The notes: generated by a model from the letters alone, not told the origin. A DNA stretch of 64,000 nucleotides from Acidimicrobiales bacterium (GCA_965116535.1 OZ220703.1:961545-1025544); one strand, 5' to 3'; positions 16,145-41,842 are shown, counted from the stretch's first letter. Program-made: numbers and translations.

Positions 16145-16744
16145 ATGGCTGACCAAGCCACTTTCGCCGACCAGGCCATGGTCTACATGGACCAGCTCTA
16201 CTCGGCGGCTCGGCGGATGACCCGCAACACAGCCGACGCCGAGGATCTTGTGCAAGAAACCTACCTGCGGGCCTACCGGGGTTTCGGCAACTTCCAGCAA
16301 GGCACCAACTTGCGGGCCTGGCTGTTCCGCATCCTCACCAATGCGTTCATCAACTCCTACCGGAGCAAGCAGCGCAAGCCGCAGTCGGTGGATCTGGCCG
16401 GGGTCGAAGACCTGTATCTGCACCAGAGGTTGGGAGGCGATGTGCGGGCCGCGCTGGGGGCCAGCGCCGAAGACGTGCTCATGGAGACGATCACCGAGTC
16501 GGAGATCATCGAAGCCCTGGAGTCGCTGCCTGAGGAATACCGGATCGCCGTCTTGTTGGCCGATGTGGAGGGCTTCGCCTACAAGGAAATCGCCGAGATT
16601 CTCGACGTTCCCATGGGAACGGTCATGAGCAGGCTCCATCGGGGAAGAAAAACGCTGCAAAAGCGGTTGTTAGAGTTCGGAACAGAGCGGGGATGGGTGG
16701 ATCCACCCGACCCCGACAGGACGCCGGCTTCGGCTGGCATCTGA
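16145..16744 (+). CDS. ECF (sigma-70 family group 4) RNA polymerase sigma factor, SigH/SigR/SigE-like
   Basis: Region 2 [17 protein letters not shown]...WLFRILTN and region 4 [23 protein letters not shown]. Confidence 0.85.
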
Positions 16745-19294: not shown

Positions 19295-19852
19295 GTGTCC
19301 AGCGCGGCAGACACCGGCAACGGCGACCCCGGCCCCATTCTCATCTCCAACGACGAGCTGACCGCCTGCATCGCTGACCTGGGTTCCCGCATCACCGCCG
19401 ACTACCAAGGCCGGGCCCCGCTTTTGGTGGGGGTGCTCAAGGGCGCCTTCATGTTCATGGCCGATCTGGCCCGAGCCATCGATCTGCCGGTGGAATTCGA
19501 CTTCATGGCGGTGTCTTCCTACGGCAGCTCCACCCGCACCAGCGGCGTGGTGCGAATCGTCAAAGACCTGGAACTCGATTTGGCCGGGCGCGACGTGATC
19601 CTGGTGGAAGACATCATCGACAGCGGCTTAACCCTCAACTACCTCCGCAAGAACCTGGCCGCCCGCAACCCGGCCAGCCTGGAAGTGTGCGCCCTGTTGG
19701 TGCGCAAGGGCCGCCAGTACGAAGACCTCGACCTGCGCTATGTGGGCTTCGAGATCCCGCCCGACTTCGTAGTGGGCTACGGCCTCGACGTCGGCGAGCG
19801 CTACCGCCAACTCCCCCACATCTGCCAATACCAGCCCAACAGCAATTCATAA
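19295..19852 (+). CDS. hpt: Hypoxanthine-guanine phosphoribosyltransferase
   Basis: PRPP-binding motif VILVEDIIDSGLTL. 185 aa, GTG start. Confidence 0.9.
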   Translation: MSSAADTGNGDPGPILISNDELTACIADLGSRITADYQGRAPLLVGVLKGAFMFMADLARAIDLPVEFDFMAVSSYGSSTRTSGVVRIVKDLELDLAGRDVILVEDIIDSGLTLNYLRKNLAARNPASLEVCALLVRKGRQYEDLDLRYVGFEIPPDFVVGYGLDVGERYRQLPHICQYQPNSNS

Positions 19853-19866
19853 ATTTAGCTGAAATA

Positions 19867-19890
19867 CATCTTGCTTCAACGAGCAAGATG
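19867..19890 (+). terminator. Hairpin after hpt (no U-tract)
   Basis: 9-bp inverted repeat CATCTTGCT-tcaacg-AGCAAGATG, 15 nt past the hpt stop. Confidence 0.4.
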
Positions 19891-19952
19891 TGGCAGATTG
19901 AGGTCATCGGAGCAACTCGACGGCTCCCCTCCCGACATATCGGTAGCAACCC

Positions 19953-20663
19953 ATGCGGATGGCAAGCGAGGATCGTCGGCGTCAGCTTCCCTGGGTGATA
20001 CTTGGGCTGACCATCACCCTCACCGCGGCAATCATCTTCGCCCTGTGGGCATCGTCGCTAAGCAACCGCACCGCGGTGGCAGTGGCCGATCGAGACATAC
20101 CCACCGGGTCGACGGTTCATATCAACGACCTGCGGGCAGTGGAAATAGCCAGCGGGCAAGGCGCGGGTTTCGTGCCCATGACCGAATTGGATTCCGTGGT
20201 GGGGCGCACTGTGCGGGCTGCTATTCCCGAAGGGACAATTCTTCACCCTGGGCTTTTGTCCTCGAGTTCGCCAATCGATGGAAATAAGGCGATGGTCGGC
20301 GCGGTTCTCCACCCCGGCGAATACCCGATCGCCCAACTAGGTCCCGGCCAGCCAGTCGGGGTGGTTACCATCAGCGGACACCGCGGCCAATTCGCGGCCC
20401 CAGATAACAACCAGGCCGATCTAGCCACCTTGCCCGGCGAGGCCGTTGCGACAGTCCGGGCCACAGTGGCCGAAGTAAGCGAAGTGCTGGATTCGGGCCA
20501 GGACGCCTTGTTTGTGTCGCTCTTGGTTCCCTCTGACGATGCTGTGCGTATCAGCAACTCAGCGGCCAATCGCGAACTGCGGCTCATTCTCCTGCCCGAG
20601 GAATCCCCGACAGCAGACGGTCCTCCAGTCCGTCAGCTAGCTGTCGCCAGAGCAGTTCCATGA
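19953..20663 (+). CDS. cpaB: Flp pilus assembly protein CpaB/RcpC-like (SAF domain)
   Basis: N-terminal TM segment, then IPTGSTVHINDLRAVE...GRTVRAAIPEGTILHPGLL (SAF-like). It is the first gene of the tad locus. Confidence 0.7.
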   Translation: MRMASEDRRRQLPWVILGLTITLTAAIIFALWASSLSNRTAVAVADRDIPTGSTVHINDLRAVEIASGQGAGFVPMTELDSVVGRTVRAAIPEGTILHPGLLSSSSPIDGNKAMVGAVLHPGEYPIAQLGPGQPVGVVTISGHRGQFAAPDNNQADLATLPGEAVATVRATVAEVSEVLDSGQDALFVSLLVPSDDAVRISNSAANRELRLILLPEESPTADGPPVRQLAVARAVP

Positions 20664-21406
20664 GCATCATCGCGGTGGGCAGCGCCAAAGCCAGCCCAGG
20701 CGTGACCAACTTGTCGGTCGGACTCGGACAGTCATGGGAACCAACCACCGGCCGGAGGGCCGTATTGGTGGAGGCAGATGGCGACGGCGGGGTATTGGCC
20801 GCTCGATTCGGATTGGCTTCCGCGCCCTCATTGGTGGAACTTTCGGGAACCGCTCGACATGAATTGACGGCCAATCGGCTGCAAGCCAGTTGCCAGCCGC
20901 TGGCCGGACACCTGCCTGCTCTAGTTGCTCCGGGATGCGGTGAAACAACCACCAGGGTCCTCTCCCATCTAGCAAAGCGATTGGCAGATGGCCTTGGCCA
21001 TCTTGACGACATCGACGCGGTCGTCGACGTGGGTCGCGTGCGGCTTCACTCCCCCACTGCTGAAATCATCAGACGCTGCGATCTCCTAGTGCTCGTCGCT
21101 CAACCAAGATTCGACCAGCTCGTCCCCCTAGTCCATCAGGCCCGAAGTGTGCTCTCCCAGGACATCCCAACCGCTCTGGTTTGCATAGGAGACCGGCCTT
21201 ACCCGCCGACGGAGATGGCAAAGGCCTCTCAACTCGATCTCTTAGGCGTCATGGCTCACGAACCGAGAGTTACCCAAGCACTCGTCGGCGGATTTCCCCT
21301 CAACCAGCGTCATCGTCGCCTGTTGTTGTGGCGAACACTCACCGAACTCGTACACCGAATCCACTTCCGCCTAACGGCAACAGCGGGCAGTCGAGAAGCG
21401 GCATAG
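20660..21406 (+). CDS. CpaE/TadZ/Ssd-like ParA-MinD-fold protein with a degenerate P-loop
   Basis: ATGA overlap with cpaB. The N-terminus IIAVGSAKASPGVTNLSV sits where MinD/ParA proteins have the GxxGxGKT/S motif, and no Lys-Thr/Ser is present. Confidence 0.6.
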   Translation: MSIIAVGSAKASPGVTNLSVGLGQSWEPTTGRRAVLVEADGDGGVLAARFGLASAPSLVELSGTARHELTANRLQASCQPLAGHLPALVAPGCGETTTRVLSHLAKRLADGLGHLDDIDAVVDVGRVRLHSPTAEIIRRCDLLVLVAQPRFDQLVPLVHQARSVLSQDIPTALVCIGDRPYPPTEMAKASQLDLLGVMAHEPRVTQALVGGFPLNQRHRRLLLWRTLTELVHRIHFRLTATAGSREAA

Positions 21407-22713
21407 TGGCATCGGTTCTCCTCGACCGCGTGCTTGCTCTTGTCACCCGCGAGCTAGAGCAAACCGAGTCCAGCCGGCTCGGAAATCGGATGGAGCAAAA
21501 GGCCCTGGCCAGGCAATTCATCGCTGAGGCGCTTGACGTTATCGCCGCGGATCGCGCCAGATCATTCTTGCCTCCACTCGACGAAGCTGAAGAGTCTCAA
21601 ATCACCGAAGAGGTTCTGGCCACGTTGTACGGGCTCGGGCCCATCGATCGATTGCTAGCTGACGAATCAGTCGAGAACGTGAGCGTTAACGGTTGCGACA
21701 CGGTCTGGGTCCACTATGCGGGAGGCGAGAAGCGTCGCGTTGCGGCGGTTGCCGATTCAGACAATGAACTGATCGCTCTCATACGCAGGGCAGCCGCCCG
21801 GCTGGGCCGCAATGAGCGGCGGTTCGACATTGCCAACCCCTTTCTGGACTTGAGACTGCCTGACGGATCCCGCCTTAATGCGGTGATGGCGGTATCGGAG
21901 CGTCCGTCGGTTTCGATCCGGCGACATCGCCACGAGCACATCACGTTGGCCGACCTCTGTGCGCTGGGAACATTCAACGAGACGCTGATGAGCTTCCTGA
22001 ATGCTGCGGTAAGGGCGCGAATGAGCATCATCGTGTGCGGTGGAACCAACGCGGGCAAGACGACAATGCTGCGTGCCCTCTTGAATGCCTGTGACCCCGA
22101 TGAGCGACTGGTCACCATTGAAGACCGACTGGAGTTGGGCCTATCCGCCCACCCCGAGCGGCATCGTGACGTAATTGAACTGGAAACCCGCACAGCCAAC
22201 ATCGAGGGATCTGGAGAGATCACCATGCAGCAGCTGGTGCGCAATGCGCTGGCCATGTCGCCTGATCGGTTGATCGTGGGCGAGGTAAGGGGTCCCGAAG
22301 TGGTCGACATGCTTTCGGCACTTTCGGCGGGAAACGATGGATCCATGTGCACGATTCACGCCAACTCCTCCCAAGCGGCTTTCAGCAAAATCGCCACCTA
22401 CGCCCTGCGATCCACCGAGCACATCCCGGTAGAAGCCACCAACCGAATGATCGCCGAGAGTATTGACTTTGTGGTCCATGTGAGCAGAGCAAACGACGGC
22501 CAGCGCCTAGTGAATTCGGTGCGCGAGGTCACCGGTGCTTCGTCGGGTGAAGTGACCAGCGTTGAGGTATTCACAACCAAGGGACCGGAAATGGCCCGGC
22601 CGTGTGCCAGCTTGCAAGCCTCTACCCAACACCGATTGGCCAACGCTGGACTTGATCTTTCTTCCCGGGACTGGGAGTTGGCCCATGAGGAATTCAAATG
22701 TCCCCGCTTATAG
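21406..22713 (+). CDS. cpaF: Tad/Flp pilus secretion ATPase CpaF/TadA
   Basis: Walker A VCGGTNAGKTTML and Walker B-like DRLIVGEVRG. GTG start at 21406 overlaps the upstream TAG. Confidence 0.9.
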   Translation: MASVLLDRVLALVTRELEQTESSRLGNRMEQKALARQFIAEALDVIAADRARSFLPPLDEAEESQITEEVLATLYGLGPIDRLLADESVENVSVNGCDTVWVHYAGGEKRRVAAVADSDNELIALIRRAAARLGRNERRFDIANPFLDLRLPDGSRLNAVMAVSERPSVSIRRHRHEHITLADLCALGTFNETLMSFLNAAVRARMSIIVCGGTNAGKTTMLRALLNACDPDERLVTIEDRLELGLSAHPERHRDVIELETRTANIEGSGEITMQQLVRNALAMSPDRLIVGEVRGPEVVDMLSALSAGNDGSMCTIHANSSQAAFSKIATYALRSTEHIPVEATNRMIAESIDFVVHVSRANDGQRLVNSVREVTGASSGEVTSVEVFTTKGPEMARPCASLQASTQHRLANAGLDLSSRDWELAHEEFKCPRL

Positions 22714-23585
22714 GAGCGCTATTGGGGGCGGCGGTGGGCACTGGGGCCTTCACCGCGATCATGGGGGTGCGCGGATTCTGGTCAAGCCCAAATGCACGCC
22801 GCGGAGGATTGGGACCTTGGTTTCAAGGATCCCTGATGCCACTAGGTGTCCGCTTGGTCATAGCCATTGCCGGGTTTGTTGCAGCAGTCGTGATGACTGG
22901 ATGGTTGGTCGCCGGTTTCGTCGTGGGCGTTGCTGCCTTCCTCTCGCCAACGCTGCTGGGGGCCAAGGCAAGGCGAAGTCGGGAAATTGATCGCATGAAT
23001 GCCCTGGCTACTTGGGTAGAGATGCTGCGGGACACAATCAGCGCGGCATCAGGCTTGATCGAGACTCTAAAGGCCACCGCAGATTCCGCGCCATCGGTAC
23101 TGCGTGCTCCTGTACGGCAGCTGGCTGCCCGGACTGAGCGGGAACCCCTTCCTGTTGCCCTGGGGAGATTTGCCGATGAGGTGGGTCACGCGGTTGCCGA
23201 CACCGTTGCGGTATCGCTTGGGCTGGCGGCAACCAACCAGGTGGGTTCATTGCAGGAATCGCTAGCCGAACTGGCTGAGAACACTCGTCAGGAAGTGTCA
23301 ATGCGTTTGCGAATCGAAGCCTCCCGAGCTCGCCAACTTGCTTCCGCCCGCTTGATTGCCGGAGTGGTGGCTGTGTTTTGCATTTGCATGGTGGGCTTCA
23401 GCAGAACCTATCTTGCACCCTTCGACACCGTTTCAGGGCAGTTGGCGCTTGCGGTGATCGGTGGGCTGTTCATCGGCTCGGGGTTTGCCCTAGAGAGAAT
23501 GAGCCGGTTCAACAGCCCGCCCCGAATTCTGGCGGTGCATCGAGCGCCTGTGGTCCCAAGCCCAACCAGCGAATTTTCCCAATGA
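22698..23585 (+). CDS. tadB: Type II secretion system F-family protein TadB
   Basis: Polytopic membrane protein directly after cpaF with a 16-nt overlap. Size and position fit TadB. Confidence 0.75.
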   Translation: MSPLIGALLGAAVGTGAFTAIMGVRGFWSSPNARRGGLGPWFQGSLMPLGVRLVIAIAGFVAAVVMTGWLVAGFVVGVAAFLSPTLLGAKARRSREIDRMNALATWVEMLRDTISAASGLIETLKATADSAPSVLRAPVRQLAARTEREPLPVALGRFADEVGHAVADTVAVSLGLAATNQVGSLQESLAELAENTRQEVSMRLRIEASRARQLASARLIAGVVAVFCICMVGFSRTYLAPFDTVSGQLALAVIGGLFIGSGFALERMSRFNSPPRILAVHRAPVVPSPTSEFSQ

Positions 23586-24460
23586 CCGTAGGTCTGGCAA
23601 TGGGCGCGATGATTGGACTTGGTCTCACTGCGGCCTTTTGGGGGCTGTTCCCCCCGCGAGAGCCCTTGCACATTCGACTGAGCGAACTAGGTCAGCCAAG
23701 TGACCACGCCAACCGGTCGAAAACGCGCCGGGAGCGAATGGGTGGTGCCGCTGTGCGCTCGTTCGGTCGCTTGGCCTTTCAAGAGCGCCGACTTGAGCGC
23801 GACCTCCGAGCAGTTGGGCAGAGCCCGGAAGCGCTGGCGCTGGCAAAGCTCGGGATGTTGGTAGTGGGATTGGGATTGCCCGTGGGAATCTGGATCGTCA
23901 CCTGGTTGGCTCGAGCGTGGGTTTCCCCGGGCGTCGTAATCCTGGCATCTGCTGTGACAGGAGGCCTCTTCTTCTTTCTTCCAGACTTGTCGCTGCGAGA
24001 AAGAGCCCGAAAGCGGCGCAAAGAACTGCGTAATCACCTCAGCACCTATCTGGACTTGGTGGGTCTCCACCTGTCGGGAGGATGTGGCATCGAAAAGGCT
24101 CTGGCCGACGCGGCAGATCAGGGCACTGCCTGGGGATTTGCCGAGATTCAAAAGACCCTGCGGCAAGCTCAGTTGGCGAATGAACCGCCATGGACAGCTC
24201 TAGCAAGGCTCGGTGAAGATGTTGGATCACCAGAACTGGAGGAGTTGGCGGCATGGCTGATGCTGGCCGGCACTTCAGGGTCCCGAGTGCGGTCGTCCTT
24301 GCACGTCAAGGCCCGGGGATTGCGAGAGCGGGCTCTGAACGAAGCAGAAACTGAAGCTCAGCAGGCTACTGAATACATGTCGCTTCCGGTGGTTCTCATG
24401 TTCTCCGGTTTCCTGGGACTTATCGGGTATCCGGCAATCGCAGCCATTCTCAACTCATGA
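23582..24460 (+). CDS. tadC: Type II secretion system F-family protein TadC
   Basis: ATGA overlap with tadB. It is a membrane protein with a GspF-like cytoplasmic segment (LPDLSLRERARKRRKELRNHLSTYLDL). Confidence 0.75.
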   Translation: MTVGLAMGAMIGLGLTAAFWGLFPPREPLHIRLSELGQPSDHANRSKTRRERMGGAAVRSFGRLAFQERRLERDLRAVGQSPEALALAKLGMLVVGLGLPVGIWIVTWLARAWVSPGVVILASAVTGGLFFFLPDLSLRERARKRRKELRNHLSTYLDLVGLHLSGGCGIEKALADAADQGTAWGFAEIQKTLRQAQLANEPPWTALARLGEDVGSPELEELAAWLMLAGTSGSRVRSSLHVKARGLRERALNEAETEAQQATEYMSLPVVLMFSGFLGLIGYPAIAAILNS

Positions 24461-24535
24461 ACGTCTCTGGGATTCATGCCATGAGACATGGGTATATCGG
24501 CGTATTGACTCGCCCCAACCAACACTTGTCAGGAG

Positions 24536-24739
24536 ATGATGATGAGAGCAACTACCAAGCTCTATGAGCTGCTGGCCACGGCGGCGACATTCGAAGAGCG
24601 CGTCCGCCAGGCGTGGCAGGACGAACGAGGAGATGTCACTTCAACGGTGATCATCATTGCGGTCTTGGTCGCTGCGGCGGTGGCTGCGGGTGTTGTCATC
24701 ACCACCTTCATTTCCGGCCAAACCAGCAAGATCACCTAA
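24536..24739 (+). CDS. Flp-like type IVb prepilin, atypical (no Glu-Tyr after the putative cleavage Gly)
   Basis: 67 aa. A charged leader ends in DERG, followed by the hydrophobic stretch DVTSTVIIIAVLVAAAVAAGVVITTFI. Its position between tadC and the tadE genes fits a pilin. Confidence 0.55.
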   Translation: MMMRATTKLYELLATAATFEERVRQAWQDERGDVTSTVIIIAVLVAAAVAAGVVITTFISGQTSKIT

Positions 24740-24765
24740 TCAACAACGGTGGGGCAGACCTAGGA

Positions 24766-25146
24766 ATGCAAAGCGAGCGCGGTGAAGCGACGACCGCCGT
24801 CTTGGTCGTGCCCATTGCCATGCTCTTGATTTTTGTAGTTGTCCAAGCGGCCCTGGTTTTTCATGCCCAAGCCCTAATTGATGCCGCGGCCCAAGACGGC
24901 GCCCAAGCGGGCCAAGGTGTACACGGCACTGAGGAGGCAGTTCACTCGGCCGTGCATTCGGTCGTTGGCGAAGGCGCGGGGAACCTGCTCTCAAACGTGG
25001 ATGTCTCGGTGCAGGCAAACCCACGGCGACTGTCGGTGACCGTGCGGGCCACTGTGAAATCGCTAATCCCTGGTTACAACCCCACCGTTTCTTCTATTGC
25101 CGCAGGACCCCGCGAGGTCTTCGTCCCCGAGTACCGAAGACGATGA
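24766..25146 (+). CDS. TadE-like pseudopilin
   Basis: N-terminus MQSERGEATTAVLVVPIAMLLIFVVVQAALV is the TadE-type motif. Confidence 0.7.
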   Translation: MQSERGEATTAVLVVPIAMLLIFVVVQAALVFHAQALIDAAAQDGAQAGQGVHGTEEAVHSAVHSVVGEGAGNLLSNVDVSVQANPRRLSVTVRATVKSLIPGYNPTVSSIAAGPREVFVPEYRRR

Positions 25147-25589
25147 CCGGCTTGTGGTGGTGTCAGCGGCGACGTGACGCCGCCGAACGAGGCAGCAGTG
25201 TCGTGGGTCTGGTGATTCTCACCCCAATAATGGCCATGCTTCTGTTCTTCGTCGTGGCTGCCGGCCGACTCGGAGTTATCGAGAGCAAATTGACTTCCGC
25301 AGCTCGCAACGCGGCTCGAGCAGCCTCGCAAACCCAGTCAGTTTCGACTGCACAGGCAGTGGCAACAACGACTGCGGAAGCCACTCTGGACCGCTTGAGA
25401 ACAGGATGCCATGGGGGGCCTCGGGTTCGTGTCCTAGGGCTTGACCTTGGACCAGGAGGACAAGTGCACATCCAGGTCTCGTGTGTGGTGAGGCTGACGG
25501 ATCTAACCGTGCCCGGCATGCCCGGCAGTCGAACAGTGACCGCAGACTCCGTTTCAGTGGTGGACCGCTTTCGAAGCGGGGGCTCCTAG
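25143..25589 (+). CDS. TadE-like pseudopilin
   Basis: ATGA overlap with the upstream gene. AERGSSVVGLVILTPIMAMLLFFVVAAGRL is TadE-type. Confidence 0.7.
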   Translation: MTGLWWCQRRRDAAERGSSVVGLVILTPIMAMLLFFVVAAGRLGVIESKLTSAARNAARAASQTQSVSTAQAVATTTAEATLDRLRTGCHGGPRVRVLGLDLGPGGQVHIQVSCVVRLTDLTVPGMPGSRTVTADSVSVVDRFRSGGS

Positions 25590-25591
25590 CT

Positions 25592-26053
25592 GTGCACCGG
25601 GGTGCTCCCAGAAAGATCCTTGACCCTGTCCGACTACCCGGAGAACGGGAAAGGGGGCAGGTGACAGTGATTTTTGTCGTCTTGGCTGTGGCGCTAGTCA
25701 TGTTGGGAGGACTGGCTTATGACGGCGCCCGAATCTTGGACGCCAAACGGAACGCCTCCTTTTTGGCACTGGAAGCTGCCAGAGCCGGCGCTCAGGCGAT
25801 TTCGAGCGAATCCATTTACCAAGGGGACGGGAACGTGAGCATTGACCCAACTCAAGCGCGAATCGCGGCGGCTGAATTTTTCGACCAGCACGATGAATGG
25901 TCGATCTCGGTGAGGGGGGACACGGTCACCGCAACCGTGTGGCTAACCCAGCCACTTCAAGTGCTCTCAATGCTCGGCATTGAGTCACGTCGGGTGACTG
26001 GACACGCCAGTGCCCGTGCCATACAGGGAATAGACAGAGGAGATTACCGATGA
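25592..26053 (+). CDS. TadG/TadE-family pilus assembly protein
   Basis: ERERGQVTVIFVVLAVALVMLGGLAYDGARIL resembles the TadG-like N-terminal motif. The start is GTG 25592 (alternative GTG 25661). Confidence 0.55.
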   Translation: MHRGAPRKILDPVRLPGERERGQVTVIFVVLAVALVMLGGLAYDGARILDAKRNASFLALEAARAGAQAISSESIYQGDGNVSIDPTQARIAAAEFFDQHDEWSISVRGDTVTATVWLTQPLQVLSMLGIESRRVTGHASARAIQGIDRGDYR

Positions 26054-28971
26054 ACCTGAATGAAAATCCCCGAAGGGAGACCGTCCGCGGCATGGCGTCA
26101 GCTGTGCTATTGGTCGGATTGCTGATTGGCGTTCCGATACTTTTGATCCTTGGAGTGGGTTGGCCACTTCCCCAAGGGATCCCCTCGGGCTCGGACATTG
26201 TCACCACCATCAAGACAGGCGCCGTTCCCCCTTCTACCATCTGGAAGACCATCTCGGTCGTAGTGTGGGTTCTCTGGTTCCTTTTGCTTGCCGGGGTAGC
26301 AGTAGAAGCGTGGGCTCACCTGCGAGGTCGAGTTGCCCCCCGAGTTGCCTTCTTGCCTTCGTTCATTCAGCGCTTTTCGGCCCAAATCATGGGTACGGCT
26401 CTCTTGATCGCCTTCTCGCTACAGCATCCAGGACTCGCAACGGCTGACAACCAAGAGCTCCTTGCCCCTACAACATTCAAGATGGATGCCGAGCCCGCAG
26501 TTGCAGAGCCCGCAGATACAGAACCCCTCGCCGTGGAGCGGAACGACAGCCTGCGACAGCTAGCCGACCGGTACCTGGGAGATCCGGAAAAATGGACTGA
26601 GGTGTTCGTCTTGAATGAGGGACAAGATCAGACAGACGGTGGGTCGCCGTCGGACCCAAACCAGCTCCAATCAGGGTGGGAGCTGGTCATGCCCGCTGAA
26701 TCACGTATTCCGAGTGCCAACGAATCCAAAAATGCCGAGAAGTCCGACGTCAACCAGAAGCCCGACGTCCATGCCGCTGAACTCGATCACTCCTTGATCA
26801 CAGTTCAGACCGGCGACACCTTGTGGGGATTAGCGGCTCAGCATCTCGATGACCCGGAGAGGTGGATTGACATTTTCAACTCCAACCGAGACATCATCCA
26901 AGACCCAGAAGTCATCCTGCCTGGATGGCAAATCGAGATCCCAGCCGTTGGTTCCAAGCCAACTGAGGCATTGCCTCCGGCCCAACCCCTGGCGGAGACC
27001 GTTGACCACAGCGCGCTCCAGATCCAACCCCTGGCGGAGACCGTTGACCATGTCGCCCCCGTATCGGCCTACGCCACGGCAAGACCAACCGTGGTGGCCG
27101 TCGTTCCCTCTGAAAGCAATAGCCACCAGTCAATCCCCAACAGGGAGGCAATGTTTGCCATCGGTGGTCTCGGCGTCTTCGCTAGCAGCCTTGGATGGGT
27201 ACTAGCGCGACTTCGACGTACACAACGCCGTCGATTGCCAAATGGTCGAATGCCCGTGCCGCCGTCCGATGGTGCCGTTCAGCTGGACCAACAATTGCAA
27301 GGTGCTTCCGACCCCGACGCGGCTCTGTTTTTGGACGCGTCGTTGCGGATCATGTCTTCTCGAATTGCTGGAAATTTCTCACCCAGTATTATCGGAGTGA
27401 CGATGGACTCAACCAGTGTGTCGATTCATCTCAGCTCGCCTGAAGAGGCTCCACCCGGGTTCCACGTCGGGGACGACGGTACGACTTGGACCTTGCCGAA
27501 GGACCCCAGACTAGAGCTACTCCTTGCTGAGGCCGACAGCGTGCCCGCGCCTCTGCCCACTCTGGCCACCCTGGGCAAGAAAGACGGCGACGAGTTCTTG
27601 CTGAATCTTGAGCACATGGCCGCTCTGAGCTTGGAAGGCAACCACCAAGCGATCCTCGAACTTTGCGCGGCAATGGCAATGCAGTTGGCCAGCAGCCATT
27701 TGGCTGACGATCTCACCGTCTTGTGTGTGGGGTTCGGTCGGGAGCTCACAATGTTGGAACGGGTCGAGTACGTACCCGATCTAGCTTCGGCCACCGAACG
27801 AATCCGGCACCATCAGCGTCAGAATCAGGCATTGCTAGGAAGCCATCATCCCGTCGACCACAGCAGAATCGGAGGCAACGGTGACTTCTCGCACCCAATG
27901 GTGGCATTGGTCCCCAATCGACTGAGTCGGGAAGACGCCTGTGAACTTCTCGAAGCATGTGACTCTTCGGTAAGCGTCGTGGCCCACGGACTCGAGGGCG
28001 CTTCATGGGTGGGTCAATTCAATGAACACGGCCTGCTGCTTCAACCCATCGGACTTCAACTTGAAGCTCACGGATTACCCGATGCAGCCATCGTTGCCTT
28101 TGCCGAATTGGCCTCTTCAGCCAAAGACACCGAGGGAGTGGCCCTGACTGTGCCGCCAGAACCGCAATCGATCGAAGTCAGGTACGACTCTTCCGCCATC
28201 GGCCTACCTGCTGCCGACATTGAGGTCCGAGTGCTGGGAACCATAGAAGTGTTGGGGGCTGCACAACCGTTTACTTCGCGCCGAGCGCTGGATTTGGTTA
28301 CCTACTTGGCCTTTCATCCTGAAGGAGCCGACCGAGACCAGCTGCGAACCCACATTTGGCCCTCCGACGAACCTCCTTCTGAGTCCACTCTGGCCAACAC
28401 GGTAAGTCGCGCCCGCAAGGCCCTTGGGACCAATGAAGACGGTGACCTGTACTTGCCAAGGGTGAGCGCCAAGGGGATTTATCAGCTTCGGGCAGGAGTG
28501 GGGACTGATGTCGGCAGGTTTGAATCACTCATTTCCACCGCCCGCAAGGATGTTGGCGAGCGCAGTCGAGAGCAGCTTCAATCTGCTCTCGACTTGGTCC
28601 GGGGGACTCCCTTTACCGGCGGTGCCGGCGACATGTTCCGATGGGCTGACTTCGGGCTGCGTACCCATATCGATTGCCTGGTTGATACTGCGGCCCACGA
28701 ATTGGCCGAAATGCATTTGGAGGTTGGTGATACCGAAAATGCCAAGAGGGCGGTCTTGACCAGCCTCCGGGTGGTAGGGGTGTGCGAACAGTGCTACCGC
28801 CTGCGGCTGATGGCCGCCGCTGAGAACCCCACTGAAGTGCGCCAGATAATGGCGGAGCTGGTGCGTTTGCTGAAGCGGGAGAGCAATCAACCCGAGTCCG
28901 ACGACCTCATCGGGCCCGAGCTGCTGGAGCTCTACGAGCAGCTAATGCCAACTGGCTCGTTGTTCAGGTAG
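26050..28971 (+). CDS. Membrane-anchored LysM-LysM / winged-helix + BTAD (SARP-like) regulator, 973 aa
   Basis: ATGA overlap with the upstream tadG-like gene. It has three N-terminal TM segments and two LysM-like repeats (VERNDSLRQLADRYLGDPEKW...; VQTGDTLWGLAAQHLDDPERW...GWQIEIP). A fourth TM (FAIGGLGVFASSLGWVLARL) follows. The C-terminus is VRVLGTIEVLG...LDLVTYLAFHP...LRTHIWP (OmpR/SARP wHTH) plus a helical BTAD-like region. Confidence 0.75.
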   Translation: MNLNENPRRETVRGMASAVLLVGLLIGVPILLILGVGWPLPQGIPSGSDIVTTIKTGAVPPSTIWKTISVVVWVLWFLLLAGVAVEAWAHLRGRVAPRVAFLPSFIQRFSAQIMGTALLIAFSLQHPGLATADNQELLAPTTFKMDAEPAVAEPADTEPLAVERNDSLRQLADRYLGDPEKWTEVFVLNEGQDQTDGGSPSDPNQLQSGWELVMPAESRIPSANESKNAEKSDVNQKPDVHAAELDHSLITVQTGDTLWGLAAQHLDDPERWIDIFNSNRDIIQDPEVILPGWQIEIPAVGSKPTEALPPAQPLAETVDHSALQIQPLAETVDHVAPVSAYATARPTVVAVVPSESNSHQSIPNREAMFAIGGLGVFASSLGWVLARLRRTQRRRLPNGRMPVPPSDGAVQLDQQLQGASDPDAALFLDASLRIMSSRIAGNFSPSIIGVTMDSTSVSIHLSSPEEAPPGFHVGDDGTTWTLPKDPRLELLLAEADSVPAPLPTLATLGKKDGDEFLLNLEHMAALSLEGNHQAILELCAAMAMQLASSHLADDLTVLCVGFGRELTMLERVEYVPDLASATERIRHHQRQNQALLGSHHPVDHSRIGGNGDFSHPMVALVPNRLSREDACELLEACDSSVSVVAHGLEGASWVGQFNEHGLLLQPIGLQLEAHGLPDAAIVAFAELASSAKDTEGVALTVPPEPQSIEVRYDSSAIGLPAADIEVRVLGTIEVLGAAQPFTSRRALDLVTYLAFHPEGADRDQLRTHIWPSDEPPSESTLANTVSRARKALGTNEDGDLYLPRVSAKGIYQLRAGVGTDVGRFESLISTARKDVGERSREQLQSALDLVRGTPFTGGAGDMFRWADFGLRTHIDCLVDTAAHELAEMHLEVGDTENAKRAVLTSLRVVGVCEQCYRLRLMAAAENPTEVRQIMAELVRLLKRESNQPESDDLIGPELLELYEQLMPTGSLFR

Positions 28972-30358
28972 TTGGAGGGGGCGGCGACTCCGTCTTGCGG
29001 GTGCGTCGGCGGCGGATCCACCAGATGAGGGCGGCGATGGCTGCGATTATGGGGAGGAAGGGCAGCAGCACGCCGACCACGATCAGTATCACGCTGAACA
29101 CGGCCACCACACCGCTGGCGCCGTCGGAGACGGAGTCGCCGAACCCGGGCAGGGCATCGTCGGTGTCCACCTGAACCCACACCACCGACTCGCCCCACAC
29201 CTCGTCGAGGGCGGTGCCGTCGAAGTTGACCGGGGTGGCGGTGACTTCGAGCTCGATGGGCAGGCCTCGGGTGGCCACCCGGCCGGCCAATCGGCCCTCT
29301 TCTATGGGCAGCTCCAGCACTGCGGCCATGAGCTCGTTGGGCTCAATGCGGCTGAAGCGGCCCTGGGTGGGTCTGAAGTTGTCGAGGTTGAGGCGCAGGT
29401 TTCGGGTGTTCACCTCCACGTCGGTGAGCGCCGATGTGCCGGTGTTCTCCACTTCCAGGCAGAGATAGATCTCGGCCTCGGGCTCCACGGTGATGTTCTG
29501 CACGCCCAGGCACGGTTCGTCGGCATCCTCGGACACCCAGGCGGTTACCAGAATGCCGGTGTCGGGCAAAACGGTAGGCGACTGGGTGATGGTGAGCGTG
29601 ATGGTGGCCAGATCGACCTGGTCTTGGAGGGTGCGAAGCTGGCCCCTCAGTCGCTCCAGGGTGGTCTCCCGATCCAGCAGCTCCCGCTCGAGTTCGGCCA
29701 CGTCTTCGAGATCGGTGGCTTCTTGGAGGAAGTTCCGCAGCCGGTCCACGCTGGCCTCGGCGGTGATGATGCGGCTTCTCAAGTCGACGATGATCTCGGT
29801 CACGTCGTCGGAGGTGATGGACTGGTCGACCAGCTTGCCAACCCCCGACAGCCGCTCAAGGGCGGTGGAGAAGTCGGCGGGCAGCACCTTGAAGGTGATG
29901 CTGGTGCGGGGCCGGGGTTCGGTTCGGGTGTTCTGAGAGAACACGATGCCGCCCAGGCCCTGCACGGTGGACACCGCCTCCCGGCTGGCCGCCTCCACGT
30001 CTTCGGCCTGCACGGAGATCTCGGCGGTGTAGATGATGTCGCGGCCCAGATCGGCGGGGGTGAGAGCGGTGGGAACGGCCAGGCCGCTGTTGTCGCTGGT
30101 TAGTGCAACTTCCATATCGTCAGCAGGCTCGGACTCGGGGACCTCCATCGCTGCCGCTTCTTCGAAATCAGCGGGACCGCTGTCATCCATTGCCATTGCC
30201 GGTTCAGGAAAACCCTCTGATTCCATAACTACCCCACTGTCGTCGTCGCCATTGGCGCCGCAGGCGGCAAACAGCACGAAGAAGGCGCTGAGCACCGCGA
30301 GCAGAACAAAAATGAGTCGGCGGCGTGACTTGGTTGAAGTGCGATTGATATCGGGCAT
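28964..30358 (-). CDS. DUF4349-like lipoprotein with C-terminal TM anchor
   Basis: Lipobox FAACG and an acidic linker. A coiled-coil segment (DRLRNFLQEATDLEDVAELERELLDRETTLERLRGQLRTLQD) is typical of DUF4349. There is a C-terminal TM. It overlaps 26050..28971 convergently by 8 bp. Confidence 0.6.
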   Translation of the reverse strand: MPDINRTSTKSRRRLIFVLLAVLSAFFVLFAACGANGDDDSGVVMESEGFPEPAMAMDDSGPADFEEAAAMEVPESEPADDMEVALTSDNSGLAVPTALTPADLGRDIIYTAEISVQAEDVEAASREAVSTVQGLGGIVFSQNTRTEPRPRTSITFKVLPADFSTALERLSGVGKLVDQSITSDDVTEIIVDLRSRIITAEASVDRLRNFLQEATDLEDVAELERELLDRETTLERLRGQLRTLQDQVDLATITLTITQSPTVLPDTGILVTAWVSEDADEPCLGVQNITVEPEAEIYLCLEVENTGTSALTDVEVNTRNLRLNLDNFRPTQGRFSRIEPNELMAAVLELPIEEGRLAGRVATRGLPIELEVTATPVNFDGTALDEVWGESVVWVQVDTDDALPGFGDSVSDGASGVVAVFSVILIVVGVLLPFLPIIAAIAALIWWIRRRRTRKTESPPPPTT

Positions 30359-30492: not shown

Positions 30493-31038
30493 GTGAAGAA
30501 AGCCCAAAAGGGCGACCACGGCGCGTTCGACGACCTGCTGCGACGGCACTACAACCAGATCTACGCCATCTGCCGGCGGCTGGCCGGCAATGAGGCCGAT
30601 GCTCTGGATGCCGCTCAGGAGGCGCTCATCACCCTGGTGCGGCGCATCGACCGATTCGACGGGCGGTCGAAGTTCACCACCTGGATGCACCGGGTGGTGA
30701 CCAACGCCTGTCTCGACGAATTGCGCCGGAGGGGACGGCGACCGGTGCCGAGCGCGGTGGAAGAACAGCCCTTGGCCGTGGCCGAACGGCCGGTGGCCGA
30801 CTCGGTGGCCGATCGGCTCGACATCGAAACGGCCCTGGTCCAGCTACCCGAAACCTTCCGGGTGCCGCTGGTGTTGTGCGACCAACTGGGCATGAGCTAC
30901 GAGGAGATCTCCCAACAGATGGACATTCCCCCGGGAACGGTGAGATCTCGCATCTCCCGGGGACGCCGACGCCTAGCCGAGCTGCTGGGCGGGAACCCAG
31001 ACGACCCCGGCCAACGTCACACTGGGGAACAATCATGA
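30493..31038 (+). CDS. ECF sigma factor (SigM-like by position)
   Basis: Region 2 ADALDAAQEALITLVRRIDRF...FTTWMHRVVTNACLD and region 4 YEEISQQMDIPPGTVRSRISRGR. It lies upstream of trxB-trxA-cwlM, as sigM does in M. tuberculosis. Confidence 0.8.
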   Translation: MKKAQKGDHGAFDDLLRRHYNQIYAICRRLAGNEADALDAAQEALITLVRRIDRFDGRSKFTTWMHRVVTNACLDELRRRGRRPVPSAVEEQPLAVAERPVADSVADRLDIETALVQLPETFRVPLVLCDQLGMSYEEISQQMDIPPGTVRSRISRGRRRLAELLGGNPDDPGQRHTGEQS

Positions 31039-32018
31039 GCGACGAGCGCGGCGAGATGACCCCACAGCAGATGGACGAGCTGGCCTCCGCCTACTTGGAC
31101 GGAGAGGCCACGCCAGAAGAGGCCGCCCTGGTGGAAGGCGATCCCCGGCTGCAAGAACTGGTGGAAGAGTTCCGGGCGATTCGGGATCTGGTGGCCGCTC
31201 CAGTCGAGCTTCCCTCCGACGAGGTGCGGGATCAGATGATCGCCCAAGCACTGGAACACCGGGCCCCGGTGGTATCGCTGGAGAAGGCCCGGCGCCGGCT
31301 GCGGGCAGTTCCGCCACAGGCCAGGGTGATTCTGGCCGCGGCTGCGGTGGTTGCCGCCATCGCGGTGGCGGGGGTATCGCTGTTCGACCGGGCCGACCGC
31401 GGTGACGACGACATGATGGTGGCCGACGATGCGGGTCCAGCCCCCGCCATGGCCGAAGAGCCGCCAATGGACATGAGGGAGTCGGCGCCCACTTCCGACG
31501 AACAAAGCGAGGTTGCTGCCGAAGAAGTTCCCATGGATGATTCTGCCGCCTCCGCCGAGGTATTTGAGGCTGAAGCCTCCGCCGAGGAGATGATGGACGA
31601 GGAGATGGCCAGCGACGACGCCGAACCCGTCGAGTTGGCGGAGCCCAGCGACGACATGGGCGAACCCGAACTGATGATGGCCGACGAGCCTGAAGCGGCA
31701 CCTACCTCGGGCGAAGCCCCGTTGGTGTTCGAGACCGCGGCCGATCTTGCCGACTACGCGCTGCCACTCGCCGAAGAGCGCATATACGCTCGGGACACCG
31801 AAAGGCCTGACGAAACCACCGACATCGATCTCATGGGCTGCCCGCTGTTCCCCGACGAGGGTCTCGAACTGCTGGCCCGATTTGAGGCATTGGTGGACAA
31901 CGTCGAAGTCCAGGTTTCGGTGTACGTCACCGAAACCGACTTGCAGCTCACCGAGACAACTCCGCCGCCCGAATGCGAGCTGCTCAATTCGCAAGCCTTC
32001 CTCGACTCGCTCAAATAG
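31035..32018 (+). CDS. Anti-sigma factor, single-pass membrane protein with a very acidic extracytoplasmic region
   Basis: ATGA overlap with the sigma gene. N-terminal LASAYLDGEATPEE is an anti-sigma-type motif. The TM is VILAAAAVVAAIAVAGVSLF, followed by D/E/M/A-rich low complexity. Confidence 0.65.
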   Translation: MSDERGEMTPQQMDELASAYLDGEATPEEAALVEGDPRLQELVEEFRAIRDLVAAPVELPSDEVRDQMIAQALEHRAPVVSLEKARRRLRAVPPQARVILAAAAVVAAIAVAGVSLFDRADRGDDDMMVADDAGPAPAMAEEPPMDMRESAPTSDEQSEVAAEEVPMDDSAASAEVFEAEASAEEMMDEEMASDDAEPVELAEPSDDMGEPELMMADEPEAAPTSGEAPLVFETAADLADYALPLAEERIYARDTERPDETTDIDLMGCPLFPDEGLELLARFEALVDNVEVQVSVYVTETDLQLTETTPPPECELLNSQAFLDSLK

Positions 32019-40111: not shown

Positions 40112-40397
40112 AACTTCCTCCAAGGCCGGGGTGCCATCGTCTTTGGGACCGCCCTACAAGCGCCTCCCGCCTCCCAGCGTTTCCCCTACGCTACGGCCTT
40201 GCTAGGTGTCACGACAACCACTGCCGCCGACGCGTTCACAATTGCCACCTGAGCGACAATAACAACTTCTTCAACATTCGCCTCTGACCTGCGAAAACTA
40301 TCAAGACGCCCGTGCACGAATAAAGAAGAGGTGCTACAGTCCTGAATTCCAGTCGAGGCGGTGCCAACTTGGTTGGGCAAGACAATAGGACCGCAAG

Positions 40398-40428
40398 TTA
40401 TCCACAGCTTATGCACATTTGTGGATAC
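40398..40428. promoter_or_regulatory. Pair of convergent DnaA boxes in the dnaA promoter region
   Basis: TTATCCACA at 40398-40406 is a perfect E. coli-type consensus. TGTGGATAC at 40420-40428 is the reverse complement of GTATCCACA. The pair lies about 30-60 nt before the dnaA ATG. Confidence 0.7.
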
Positions 40429-40459
40429 CACATGTCATTTTTTTGGAGTTGCCAACAAA

Positions 40460-41842
40460 ATGGTGTCTGCAACAATTCTCTGGTCTTCCTTTGAGAGCAG
40501 CATTCGAGCTCAAGTTCCTGATGCCGTCTGGCAATCCACATTCAACCCAGCAAAAGCAACATCGCTTGAGGAAGACATTCTTGAACTGACCGTTCCAAAC
40601 ACCATCATCAAAGATCGTCTTGAAGGCGAATACTTTGAAGTCTTGAGGAACGCACTAGCTAGCTCAAATGCCACCCATATAACTCTGAAGATCAATACTG
40701 AACAAGATCCTAGCGGCACCGACGACAATTATGACTCTGCTGCTGTACCGCCAGTAGCTACTCCAGAAGTGGCAAGTGCTCCTCCCATCAACCGGACAAC
40801 GACTGCTCTTCATCCAAACTACGTATTCGATAAATTTGTGACCGGGCCATCCAATCGATTTGCCTTGGCAGCAGCGCTCTCAGTCGCCGAAACCCCTGGT
40901 AAATCGTACAATCCGCTCTTCATCCATGGTCATGCTGGCCTTGGCAAGACGCATTTACTCCAGGCGATTGGCCACTACGTCAAGAGTCACTACGTGGACG
41001 ATCAGCGTCATCCAATCAAGCGAATTGTCTATGTGTCCACCGAAACTTTCCTCAATCAGTTTGTTGATGCAATCCGAACAAACACTCGAAGCGAATTCAA
41101 GAAAATCTACAGAGACGTGGATGTACTTCTGGTAGATGACATTCAATTCCTCGAAGGTAAAGAGGGTCTTCAGGAGGAGTTCTTCCATACATTCAACTCT
41201 CTTCATGAAGTCAACAAGCAAATTGTTCTTACCAGTGATCGACCTCCCGACGCGATACCAACTCTTGAAGATCGCATGACCAGTCGATTCAAGATGGGAT
41301 TGCTTACCGACATTCAACCTCCCGACCTTGAAACTCGACTGGCAATTCTTCGAAAGAAGGCTGAGCAATCCAATTTCGCTATTGTCGACGATGTACTTAC
41401 GTTTATCGCCAGTAATATTAAGGACAATATTCGGGAATTGGAAGGAGCTCTCACTCGGGTTACAGCATATGCCAGCTTTAACGACAAACCGCTTGATCTT
41501 GAACTGGCTAAATTCATCCTTCGCGACATCATGACTCGCCGCGAACCACAACCGGTGACGGCTGACATGATCCTGACGGCGACAGCCGACCTATTCAGAT
41601 TCAGCGTGGATGACATCGTCGGACCACGACGTCAGCGGCCGCTTGTCAAGGCCCGGCAGGTGTCCATGTACGTGTTTCGAGAGTTGACCGAGCTGAGCTA
41701 CCCCGACATTGCCCGCGTCTTCGGCGGCCGAGACCACACCACAGCCATACACGCAGTGCAGAAGATCACAAAGCAAATGTCGGAGCAGCCGGAGACGTTC
41801 AACCAGATCAACGAACTCATTCAAAAGATCAAGAATGCTTGA
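40460..41842 (+). CDS. dnaA: Chromosomal replication initiator protein DnaA
   Basis: AAA+ Walker A IHGHAGLGKTHLL, Walker B VLLVDDIQFL, and domain IV HTTAIHAVQKI. The track ORF was trimmed to ATG 40460. Confidence 0.95.
   Translation: MVSATILWSSFESSIRAQVPDAVWQSTFNPAKATSLEEDILELTVPNTIIKDRLEGEYFEVLRNALASSNATHITLKINTEQDPSGTDDNYDSAAVPPVATPEVASAPPINRTTTALHPNYVFDKFVTGPSNRFALAAALSVAETPGKSYNPLFIHGHAGLGKTHLLQAIGHYVKSHYVDDQRHPIKRIVYVSTETFLNQFVDAIRTNTRSEFKKIYRDVDVLLVDDIQFLEGKEGLQEEFFHTFNSLHEVNKQIVLTSDRPPDAIPTLEDRMTSRFKMGLLTDIQPPDLETRLAILRKKAEQSNFAIVDDVLTFIASNIKDNIRELEGALTRVTAYASFNDKPLDLELAKFILRDIMTRREPQPVTADMILTATADLFRFSVDDIVGPRRQRPLVKARQVSMYVFRELTELSYPDIARVFGGRDHTTAIHAVQKITKQMSEQPETFNQINELIQKIKNA

Follow-up and report, generated by a model that had tools for sequence, protein, structure and literature searches.

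The last gene of a Tad (Flp) pilus operon, in the 64,000-nucleotide stretch of an Acidimicrobiales bacterium analysed here (the window), encodes a 973-residue protein that joins predicted membrane segments, two LysM domains, a predicted FtsK-fold pseudo-ATPase domain and a SARP-type module, i.e. a winged helix followed by a BTAD domain. This open reading frame (ORF; 26050..28971, + strand, ATG start) is called here the LysM-SARP gene. Judged from sequence comparisons, its family is large, and in one subtype of Tad locus a member of it is an almost constant accessory gene. The gene order of this subtype is SAF/CpaB, MinD-like TadZ, TadA, TadB, TadC, pilin, TadE, TadE, TadG and LysM-SARP, with a prepilin peptidase in some taxa. 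We tentatively propose that the protein activates transcription as a membrane-tethered SARP that is coupled, physically or functionally, to the Tad machine, a reading that we regard as quite possible.

The genomic context of the family was examined by scanning one genome per GTDB species with the Acidimicrobiia alignment, a survey that covers the Acidimicrobiia clade only. The scan gave 34 loci, all from Acidimicrobiia/Poriferisocius-type metagenome-assembled genomes (MAGs). Two of them (L027 and L031) lack the upstream flank, and among the 32 loci that carry it the order found in the window (CpaB, TadZ-position protein, TadA, TadB, TadC, a pilin ORF, TadE, TadE, TadG, LysM-SARP) is kept in 28, a few of which have no detectable TadC or pilin-ORF match. 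The distant contexts consist of nine single look-ups or records, and tad linkage was observed in all nine. The LysM-SARP gene comes right after tadG in Aeromicrobium (L036), Actinomyces wuliandei (L037), a MAG (L038) and two metagenome contigs (L039 and L042), and right after a TadG-related gene on the Kineococcus radiotolerans plasmid pKRAD01 (L040); in L039 and L040 a prepilin peptidase gene follows. In Promicromonospora (L041) it is located 750 bp after tadG, and in Streptomyces sp. AS58 (L001) it stands 5 kb after the tad genes with a whiJ-like cassette between. These two gaps indicate that the linkage survives without co-transcription. In three of these contexts (L001, L039 and L040) the LysM-SARP gene and the prepilin peptidase gene overlap. 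The ninth context is a Jiangella-like metagenome contig (L043), where the gene is divergent from the tad operon and shares with it an intergenic region of 254 bp; the encoded protein (P0077) and its Jiangella alkaliphila homolog (P0076) align nearly residue for residue over the stretch displayed. The initial annotation had described a terminal gene translationally coupled to a TadG-like gene and had linked it to tad loci; the overlap with the TadG-like stop codon (ATGA) was confirmed, and the co-occurrence turned out to be more general than claimed. The tad clusters that M. luteus needs for transformation end at the TadG-like gene, and a LysM-SARP gene is not reported in them (PMC4322843), so the gene marks one tad locus subtype and not all actinobacterial ones.

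A word-indexed search returned 101 relatives. Those at 52-88% identity belong to Acidimicrobiia, including Candidatus Poriferisocius sponge-symbiont MAGs, and full-length homologs of 900-1200 residues with 22-33% identity were found in Jiangella, Streptomyces, Aeromicrobium, Actinomyces and Promicromonospora, plus one distant full-length homolog in a MAG labelled Limnocylindria. With a cut-off of E <= 1e-30, a profile search of 1.84 billion cluster representatives detected 6,556 proteins, of which the best 150 have E < 1e-203 and lengths of 888-1257 residues, nearly all with near-full-length profile coverage, and clusters at 50% identity with full-length matches number at least 150. The family, of which our protein is the Acidimicrobiia member from a Candidatus Poriferisocius-type sponge symbiont, includes proteins of sponge symbionts, Streptomyces, Actinomyces, Aeromicrobium, a Kineococcus plasmid and a Cutibacterium acnes plasmid. 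Database names cover parts of the protein ('LysM peptidoglycan-binding domain-containing protein', 'BTAD domain-containing putative transcriptional regulator', 'DNA-binding SARP family transcriptional activator', 'membrane protein'), and each of them misses most of it. In a 2013 study of a P. acnes plasmid, the ORF PAGK_2369 of the tad locus is tabulated with the Pfam entry 'LysM, BTAD' after three TadE genes; it is labelled TadB there without discussion (PMC3666418). A tblastn search of plasmids with the Actinomyces homolog gave six partial matches and missed this P. acnes plasmid. No functional study of the family was found in the searchable full-text literature, and we did not find a description of the domain combination, of the assignment of the central domain or of the breadth of the tad association, each module being of a known kind.

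The SARP assignment is carried by the family as a whole. The 44-sequence family profile spans both C-terminal domains in its matches to M. tuberculosis EmbR (E 1.8e-20) and S. coelicolor AfsR (E 4.2e-16), with weak matches to CadC (4.7e-5), ToxR (6e-4) and TcpP (0.01). Alone, PF03704 (BTAD) is matched by 23 of the 44 members at E <= 0.01, the best at E 6e-19. The full-length model superposes on the SARP module of AfsR in RNA polymerase-promoter complexes with TM-scores of 0.67-0.70 and a root-mean-square deviation of 4.2-4.7 Å, at 23-24% identity over about 260 columns (Foldseek). As in AfsR, EmbR, ActII-ORF4, RedD and DnrI, an OmpR-type winged helix is directly followed by a BTAD domain and the S/R/K contact positions are kept. 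The protein differs from such SARPs in being encoded in pilus loci and not in antibiotic gene clusters, and its EccC-DUF-like pseudo-ATPase replaces, or is placed differently from, the STAND ATPase/TPR region of large SARPs; its role as an activator is putative. AfsR contacts DNA through Q81, R87, T88, Y89, S91, R92, R94 and K95, a group of which several lie on alpha3, the helix in the major groove, as well as through S46, P47, Q48 and R50 and through S104 and Y109 of the wing (PMC11301090). The equivalents of AfsR contacts in our protein, taken from the profile alignment, are A782, N783, T784, S786, R787, R789, K790, S743, R744 and R745. Among 147 family sequences R789 is kept in 146 and S786 in 103, and an arginine or lysine is present at the positions of R787 (93 sequences), K790 (74), R744 (101) and R745 (108). 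In addition, the winged helix-turn-helix (wHTH) and BTAD domains, with 79% and 75% identity among close relatives, are the most conserved globular domains. This is how the conservation of a working DNA-binding module would look, which is not a proof of it.

Kyte-Doolittle hydropathy peaks at residues 18-36, 67-85 and 367-385, and the third N-terminal transmembrane (TM) segment, TM3, reaches 1.24 in a 19-residue window and 1.62 in a 15-residue window. Three N-terminal hydrophobic segments and at least one in mid-sequence are found in 110 of the 146 family representatives. The three N-terminal TM segments and the fourth one previously claimed are therefore supported by hydropathy, AlphaFold2 and the family pattern, TM3 being weak in this protein. 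TM1 is followed by a VGWPLP motif in which G37, P39 and P41 are at least 90% conserved, W38 being conserved in the Acidimicrobiia set; W73 and W76 of TM2 are invariant in the family and E86 is near-invariant. In the close group TM4 and its juxtamembrane region are 81% identical, and the N-terminal membrane domain has no Pfam or NCBIfam match. The counts of lysine plus arginine, which are 3 for the N-terminus, 1 and 3 for loops 1 and 2, and 7 for residues 387-402 after TM4, fit the predicted topology, with the N-terminus inside, the LysM domains outside and everything past residue 387 in the cytoplasm. The arrangement first proposed, LysM outside and wHTH-BTAD inside, is accordingly what hydropathy, these counts and AlphaFold2 predict, which would place a cytoplasmic wHTH, TM segments and an extracytoplasmic domain in one polypeptide.

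Both LysM repeats of the initial annotation were recovered. LysM2 (residues 250-298) scores above the Pfam cut-off (23.8 versus 20.9 bits, PF01476). LysM1 is undetected by Pfam in this protein and was recognised by its similarity to LysM2 (33% identity, BLASTP E 2e-10) and by its model, a helix pair with short flanking strand residues at pLDDT 83-91 (AlphaFold2). The sequence signature and the beta-alpha-alpha-beta fold of the LysM family are present, with both copies modelled at high pLDDT. LysM1 is the copy common to the whole family, and LysM2 is aligned at about 43% of positions in distant homologs. The best PDB match of the LysM region with the family profile is TsaP (E 2.8e-10), and phage LysM chains were also matched. 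These domains are predicted to be extracellular and are putative peptidoglycan binders. The Pro-rich linker behind them contains the 42-bp-period repeat noticed before, as two exact 27-nt copies (26982-27008 and 27024-27050) that Tandem Repeats Finder did not report. Length and repeat content of this tether vary among close homologs, and in homolog P0023 a different repeat, PLTPPLDHHITETQ, is present several times.

The cytoplasmic stretch of about 300 residues that had been left unassigned is now recognisable, from Foldseek and the family profile, as a pseudo-ATPase resembling FtsK and the 'DUF' domain of EccC. The AlphaFold2 model of residues 387-722 has a pLDDT of 86.8 and a pTM of 0.84, and its best Foldseek matches in the PDB are the FtsK motor, TcpA, EccC (ESX-3 and ESX-5), EssC and the isolated EccC5 'DUF', with E from 2.5e-6, probability 1.0 and modest TM-scores of 0.35-0.46. 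The family profile matches T. curvata EccC (4nh0, chain residues 35-237) at E 1e-6 and the crystal structure of the EccC5 DUF (8rin) at E 1.6e-3, whereas a 17-sequence profile of the central domain alone reaches just E 0.23 to EccC, so that the EccC assignment rests on the 44-sequence family profile together with Foldseek. No Pfam family was matched by residues 387-722 even at E 10, the FtsK_SpoIIIE model included, and NCBIfam gave none either. The RecA-like FtsK fold is present in the model and the Walker A motif GxxGxGK[ST] is absent: at its position our protein has EGNHQAI and the first domain of EccC has DGDPKAV, with the shared pattern G-[DN]-x-x-A. GK[ST] occurs at the aligned P-loop in none of the 44 aligned members and in none of the 146 library representatives, and the first P-loop glycine is retained in 133 of the 146. 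The authors of the EccC5 DUF structure describe it as a degenerated ATPase domain (PMC11154593). Like that domain, ours is predicted to adopt the FtsK RecA-like fold directly after a TM helix and has a degenerate P-loop of the same pattern; it differs in that no active ATPase domains follow, in its location outside a type VII secretion system (T7SS) locus and in the missing Pfam FtsK_SpoIIIE match. The models identify the central domain as an FtsK-fold pseudo-ATPase closest to the EccC 'DUF', and its sequence indicates that it cannot be a canonical P-loop ATPase. We considered an active translocase and rejected it, given the universal absence of Walker A.

Natural deletion variants of the locus were observed in three Poriferisocius-type genomes (L019, 8930-13012; L024, 8980-12979; L035, 8880-13627), in which cpaB and tadA-tadG are missing at the same tilS-hpt site, and the promoter with the 5' untranslated region (UTR), the TadZ-position gene and the LysM-SARP gene are kept. 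In a neighbour-joining protein tree L019 is sister to L018 and L024 is nested among L011, L014, L015, L022 and L030, all of which carry full tad loci. These positions and the differing deletion junctions indicate that the losses in L019 and L024 were independent. The amino-acid divergence of the deletion lineages is 26-47%, hence synonymous sites are saturated. The LysM-SARP gene is intact in L019 (1003 residues) and L024 (992 residues), and the retention of these copies without adjacent pilus genes argues for a role beyond building the pilus. The fragmented L035 copy contains a 414-residue reverse-strand ORF. The TadZ-position protein, which is also retained, has no Pfam or NCBIfam match and gave nothing meaningful in a single-sequence phmmer search of the PDB; a 14-sequence profile matches FleN (5j1j) at E 1.8e-5, and MinD and ParA also. 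With its degenerate Walker A (SAKASPGVT), it brings the number of predicted pseudo-NTPases encoded in the operon to two.

The region upstream of cpaB (19853-19952) is almost invariant across 30 Poriferisocius-type loci and contains a promoter-like pair, TTGCTT-17 nt-CAGATT, preceded by a conserved GAAATACA. Rfam gave no match on 19700-29200, the 5' UTR hairpin included, and a scan for consensus promoters and terminators stayed at chance level. In the divergent intergenic region of L043 (9806-9825) the 8-nt sequence GTTAGCCC occurs twice at 12-nt spacing; this pair is possibly a candidate SARP box or a chance two-copy match.

Membrane-bound OmpR-type wHTH activators exist, as illustrated by ToxR, TcpP and CadC, and ToxR and TcpP control a type IVb pilus regulon. 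The LysM-SARP protein resembles them in its predicted OmpR-type winged helix at the membrane and its extracytoplasmic domain, but it differs from their N-terminal wHTH, single TM segment and periplasmic sensor domain in having four TM segments, a C-terminal wHTH with BTAD, a LysM ectodomain and a pseudo-ATPase spacer of about 290 residues. The ToxR/CadC-style arrangement suggested in the initial annotation thus holds for a membrane-held wHTH with an extracytoplasmic domain, and does not hold for the position of the wHTH, the number of TM segments, the SARP module or the pseudo-ATPase that lies between. We propose that the LysM ectodomain would fix the protein to the cell wall at the pilus site, and that the pseudo-ATPase, like the EccC DUF, could oligomerise or dock under the membrane on TadA, TadB/C or the MinD-like TadZ. 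The assembly state would then decide whether the C-terminal SARP modules, joined to the pseudo-ATPase by a flexible linker, pair on promoter DNA and recruit RNA polymerase, and expression of the tad operon, possibly with that of other genes, would in this way be tied to the status of the pilus or the cell wall. In this proposal we infer DNA binding, target promoters, signal and partner contacts. The divergent layout of L043 is a classic regulator-target arrangement and was counted in favour of a regulator, as was the linkage without co-transcription in Streptomyces and Promicromonospora. As a regulator the protein would be the first SARP embedded in the membrane, wiring the envelope or the pilus directly to transcription.

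Several observations weigh against an activator. The fragment of our protein scores 25.4 bits with the Pfam Trans_reg_C model, just below the cut-off of 26.2, and 17.8 bits with BTAD (PF03704), below the cut-off of 22.1, so the wHTH-BTAD assignment made earlier stands by the family profile and the AfsR superposition and not by the Pfam scores of the protein itself. In canonical SARPs the module is N-terminal in a soluble protein, whereas here it occupies residues 724-965 of 973, behind four TM segments, in a polytopic membrane protein with predicted extracellular LysM domains. SARPs activate transcription from direct repeats that overlap the -35 element. The 30-locus alignment of the conserved Poriferisocius tad promoter contains no obvious SARP-type direct repeat, and in a search of the regions upstream of six tad operons, direct repeats of 7-mers (one mismatch allowed, spacing of 10-12 or 21-23 nt) exceeded shuffles in L039 only. 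The L035 copy of the LysM-SARP gene is broken into four ORF pieces, which fits a pilus-tied function. The near-invariant last-gene position and the overlap with tadG or the prepilin peptidase gene are more typical of a machine subunit, and operon position, pseudo-ATPase and LysM anchors fit such a subunit equally well. Finally, the structural statements all rest on predicted models.

Among known pilus and secretion proteins, FimV and TsaP are LysM proteins of type IVa pili, and ExeA/GspA of type II secretion combines a cytoplasmic ATPase, a TM segment and a peptidoglycan-binding domain. FimV/HubP, TsaP and ExeA/GspA are like the LysM-SARP protein in joining an outside peptidoglycan-binding domain to a cytoplasmic TPR-like or ATPase-like domain in a pilus or secretion machine, but they have no DNA-binding domain, belong to diderms and act mostly on secretins, and outside LysM a sequence relationship is undetectable. 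The main alternative, less likely but made serious by the operon position and these analogies, is a subunit with a structural or assembly role in the Gram-positive Tad machine, which would anchor the apparatus in peptidoglycan through LysM and would not bind DNA; its pseudo-ATPase would form a sub-membrane ring or dock on TadA/TadZ, and its winged helix and BTAD/TPR-like helices would make protein contacts. This explanation agrees with the fixed gene order and the coupling to tadG across two Actinomycetota classes and plasmids, with the overlap with the prepilin peptidase gene in three of the distant contexts, with the conserved membrane domain and its two invariant tryptophans, with TsaP as best PDB match of the LysM region, with the decay of the L035 copy after pilus gene loss, and with the searches of the Poriferisocius promoter and of six tad operons, in which no SARP box was found. 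A degenerate, EccC-DUF-like ATPase right after a TM helix is also part of the T7SS core (PMC11154593). Against it stand the basic and polar residues kept at the AfsR contact positions across a very divergent family, since without DNA binding nothing would select them, and the rank of the wHTH as most conserved globular domain. The intact copies of L019 and L024, which have no adjacent pilus genes, and the divergent gene of L043 are likewise difficult to accommodate, as are the transformation-required tad clusters of M. luteus that end at the TadG-like gene (PMC4322843). If the protein is structural, it would represent a Gram-positive counterpart of FimV or ExeA made from two recycled parts, a T7SS-like pseudo-ATPase and a transcription-factor module.

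The two functions might also be united: an integral subunit of the Gram-positive Tad machine would at the same time be a transcription factor, with pilus load or assembly switching the SARP module via the peptidoglycan-anchored LysM ectodomain and the EccC-DUF-like ring. We hold this to be unlikely; if true, a single polypeptide would lead directly from the sensing of pilus or surface to promoter activation, without a second messenger, and SARPs would gain a role unrelated to antibiotic biosynthesis. Tad pili serve in adhesion, colonisation, surface sensing and, in some actinobacteria, DNA uptake, and the family is a candidate component for anchoring or regulating them in monoderm bacteria. 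Either outcome, activator or structural subunit, is testable in cultivable relatives.

A pilus-independent pair for envelope sensing, in which a MinD/FleN-like anti-activator and the LysM-SARP activator would work as an analogue of FleN-FleQ, appears improbable. Such a pair would sense the state of the peptidoglycan and control non-tad genes, its residence in the tad operon being historical or a matter of co-regulation. Both genes indeed survive behind the original promoter where cpaB and tadA-tadG were deleted, at least twice independently, the anti-activator FleN is the best solved relative of the TadZ-position protein, and the LysM domains are predicted to be extracellular. Nevertheless, tad linkage in 9/9 distant contexts and 28/32 close loci speaks against independence from the pilus, the deletions may be recent, and the LysM-SARP gene has decayed in L035.

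Streptomyces TraB has a membrane anchor, an FtsK-like domain and a C-terminal winged helix and is reported to bind peptidoglycan, and the first three features recur in the LysM-SARP protein; TraB differs in being an active hexameric ATPase with another type of winged helix and neither LysM nor BTAD. A component that tethers or guides DNA in Tad-dependent transformation or conjugative transfer is very improbable: the TraB-like order TM / FtsK-like / wHTH, the presence of several loci on plasmids or beside conjugation genes (PMC5696575) and the Tad-mediated DNA uptake of M. luteus (PMC4322843) favour it, but Walker A is absent in 146/146 representatives, so that canonical P-loop ATP-driven translocation is not possible, the winged helix is of SARP/OmpR type with BTAD and not of FtsK-gamma or TraB type, no conjugation genes lie near the chromosomal Poriferisocius loci, and the M. 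luteus transformation clusters are described without the LysM-SARP gene (PMC4322843).

The features of the operon and of the encoded protein are listed in the table below. Starts and stops of the tad operon genes overlap or nearly abut, and tilS and hpt are located upstream, which sets the start of the operon at 19953. The ATG of the LysM-SARP gene at 26050 overlaps the upstream stop TGA (26051-26053) in the context …CCGATGAAC…, with a GGAG about 8 nt 5' of this ATG, and Met1 of the 973-residue protein lines up with the N-termini of the homologs in the alignment. Downstream, a convergent DUF4349 gene overlaps the last 8 nt of the ORF. No prepilin peptidase was found in the 64-kb window.

Features of the tad operon and of the LysM-SARP protein in the window (aa, residues of the protein; helices and domains are predicted)
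Feature	Position	Strand	Basis or detail
tad promoter-like region and 5' UTR hairpin (GGAGC...GCTCC), upstream of cpaB	19853..19952	+	30-locus alignment
cpaB/rcpC-like gene, SAF domain, first in operon	19953..20663	+	domain models
TadZ-position gene, MinD/FleN/ParA-like, 248 aa	20660..21406	+	14-sequence profile
tadA (T2SSE ATPase)	21406..22713	+	
tadB (T2SSF)	22698..23585	+	Pfam
tadC (T2SSF)	23582..24460	+	
Flp-position small ORF, 67 aa, putative pilin without canonical G/XXXXEY motif	24536..24739	+	
tadE-like pseudopilin 1	24766..25146	+	
tadE-like pseudopilin 2	25143..25589	+	Pfam
TadG-like gene (PF13400 'Tad')	25592..26053	+	start GTG 25592 or 25661
LysM / pseudo-ATPase / SARP membrane protein, 973 aa, final tad operon gene	26050..28971	+	
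TM1, aa 16-38, then conserved VGWPLP motif	26095..26163	+	hydropathy 2.94; AlphaFold2 helix 7-36
TM2, aa 65-88	26242..26313	+	hydropathy; AlphaFold2 helix 61-91
TM3, aa 104-125, weakly hydrophobic here	26359..26424	+	AlphaFold2 helix 104-125
LysM1, aa ~157-222, long-loop LysM variant	26518..26715	+	BLASTP vs LysM2; AlphaFold2
LysM2, aa 248-298, canonical	26791..26943	+	Pfam PF01476; NCBIfam LysM models
Pro-rich extracellular tether, aa 299-366, disordered	26944..27147	+	pLDDT <50 at aa 302-370
TM4, aa 367-386, then RLRRTQRRR	27148..27207	+	hydropathy; AlphaFold2 helix 375-395
Cytoplasmic FtsK/SpoIIIE-fold pseudo-ATPase, aa 407-692	27268..28125	+	AlphaFold2, Foldseek, family profile
OmpR/SARP-type winged helix, aa 724-819, recognition helix STLANTVSRARKALG	28219..28506	+	
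BTAD helical domain, aa 820-965	28507..28944	+	

The 67-residue ORF at the Flp position (…ERGDVTSTVIIIAVLVAAAVAAG…) lacks a match to Pfam Flp, yet 27 loci conserve it, and a conserved element, TATCGGCG..TTGAAcCGCCCC, is present 5' of its Shine-Dalgarno sequence.

Around the distant loci, very large FtsK_SpoIIIE proteins adjoin the tad locus in Aeromicrobium (L036, 1-3710, 1519 residues) and A. wuliandei (L037, 12759-17708, 1649 residues) and are possibly EccC-like; DUF6571 and Ntox15 genes are also found near the tad locus of the latter. Conjugation genes were observed beside the tad loci of L038 (15256-21152) and L039 (19215-22751), and L040 is itself the plasmid pKRAD01. The conjugation genes near such loci include TcpC, TcpE, AAA_10, TrbL, a relaxase-family gene and a TrwB-like gene. 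The occurrence of tad loci beside conjugation genes or on plasmids, that of C. acnes too, suggests that the locus is mobile.

Within the window, a gene for an ECF-type (extracytoplasmic function) sigma factor is present at 16145-16744, 3 kb upstream of the operon, and a weak zf-HC2 (anti-sigma-like) match was obtained in the ORF at 30876-32018, 2 kb downstream of it. The GC content dips to 0.51 at 40-42 kb, the site of dnaA (40361-41842) and dnaN (42085-43179), and the cumulative GC skew has its minimum in the same region, indicating that the window spans the replication origin region, with dnaA about 11-20 kb from the tad operon.

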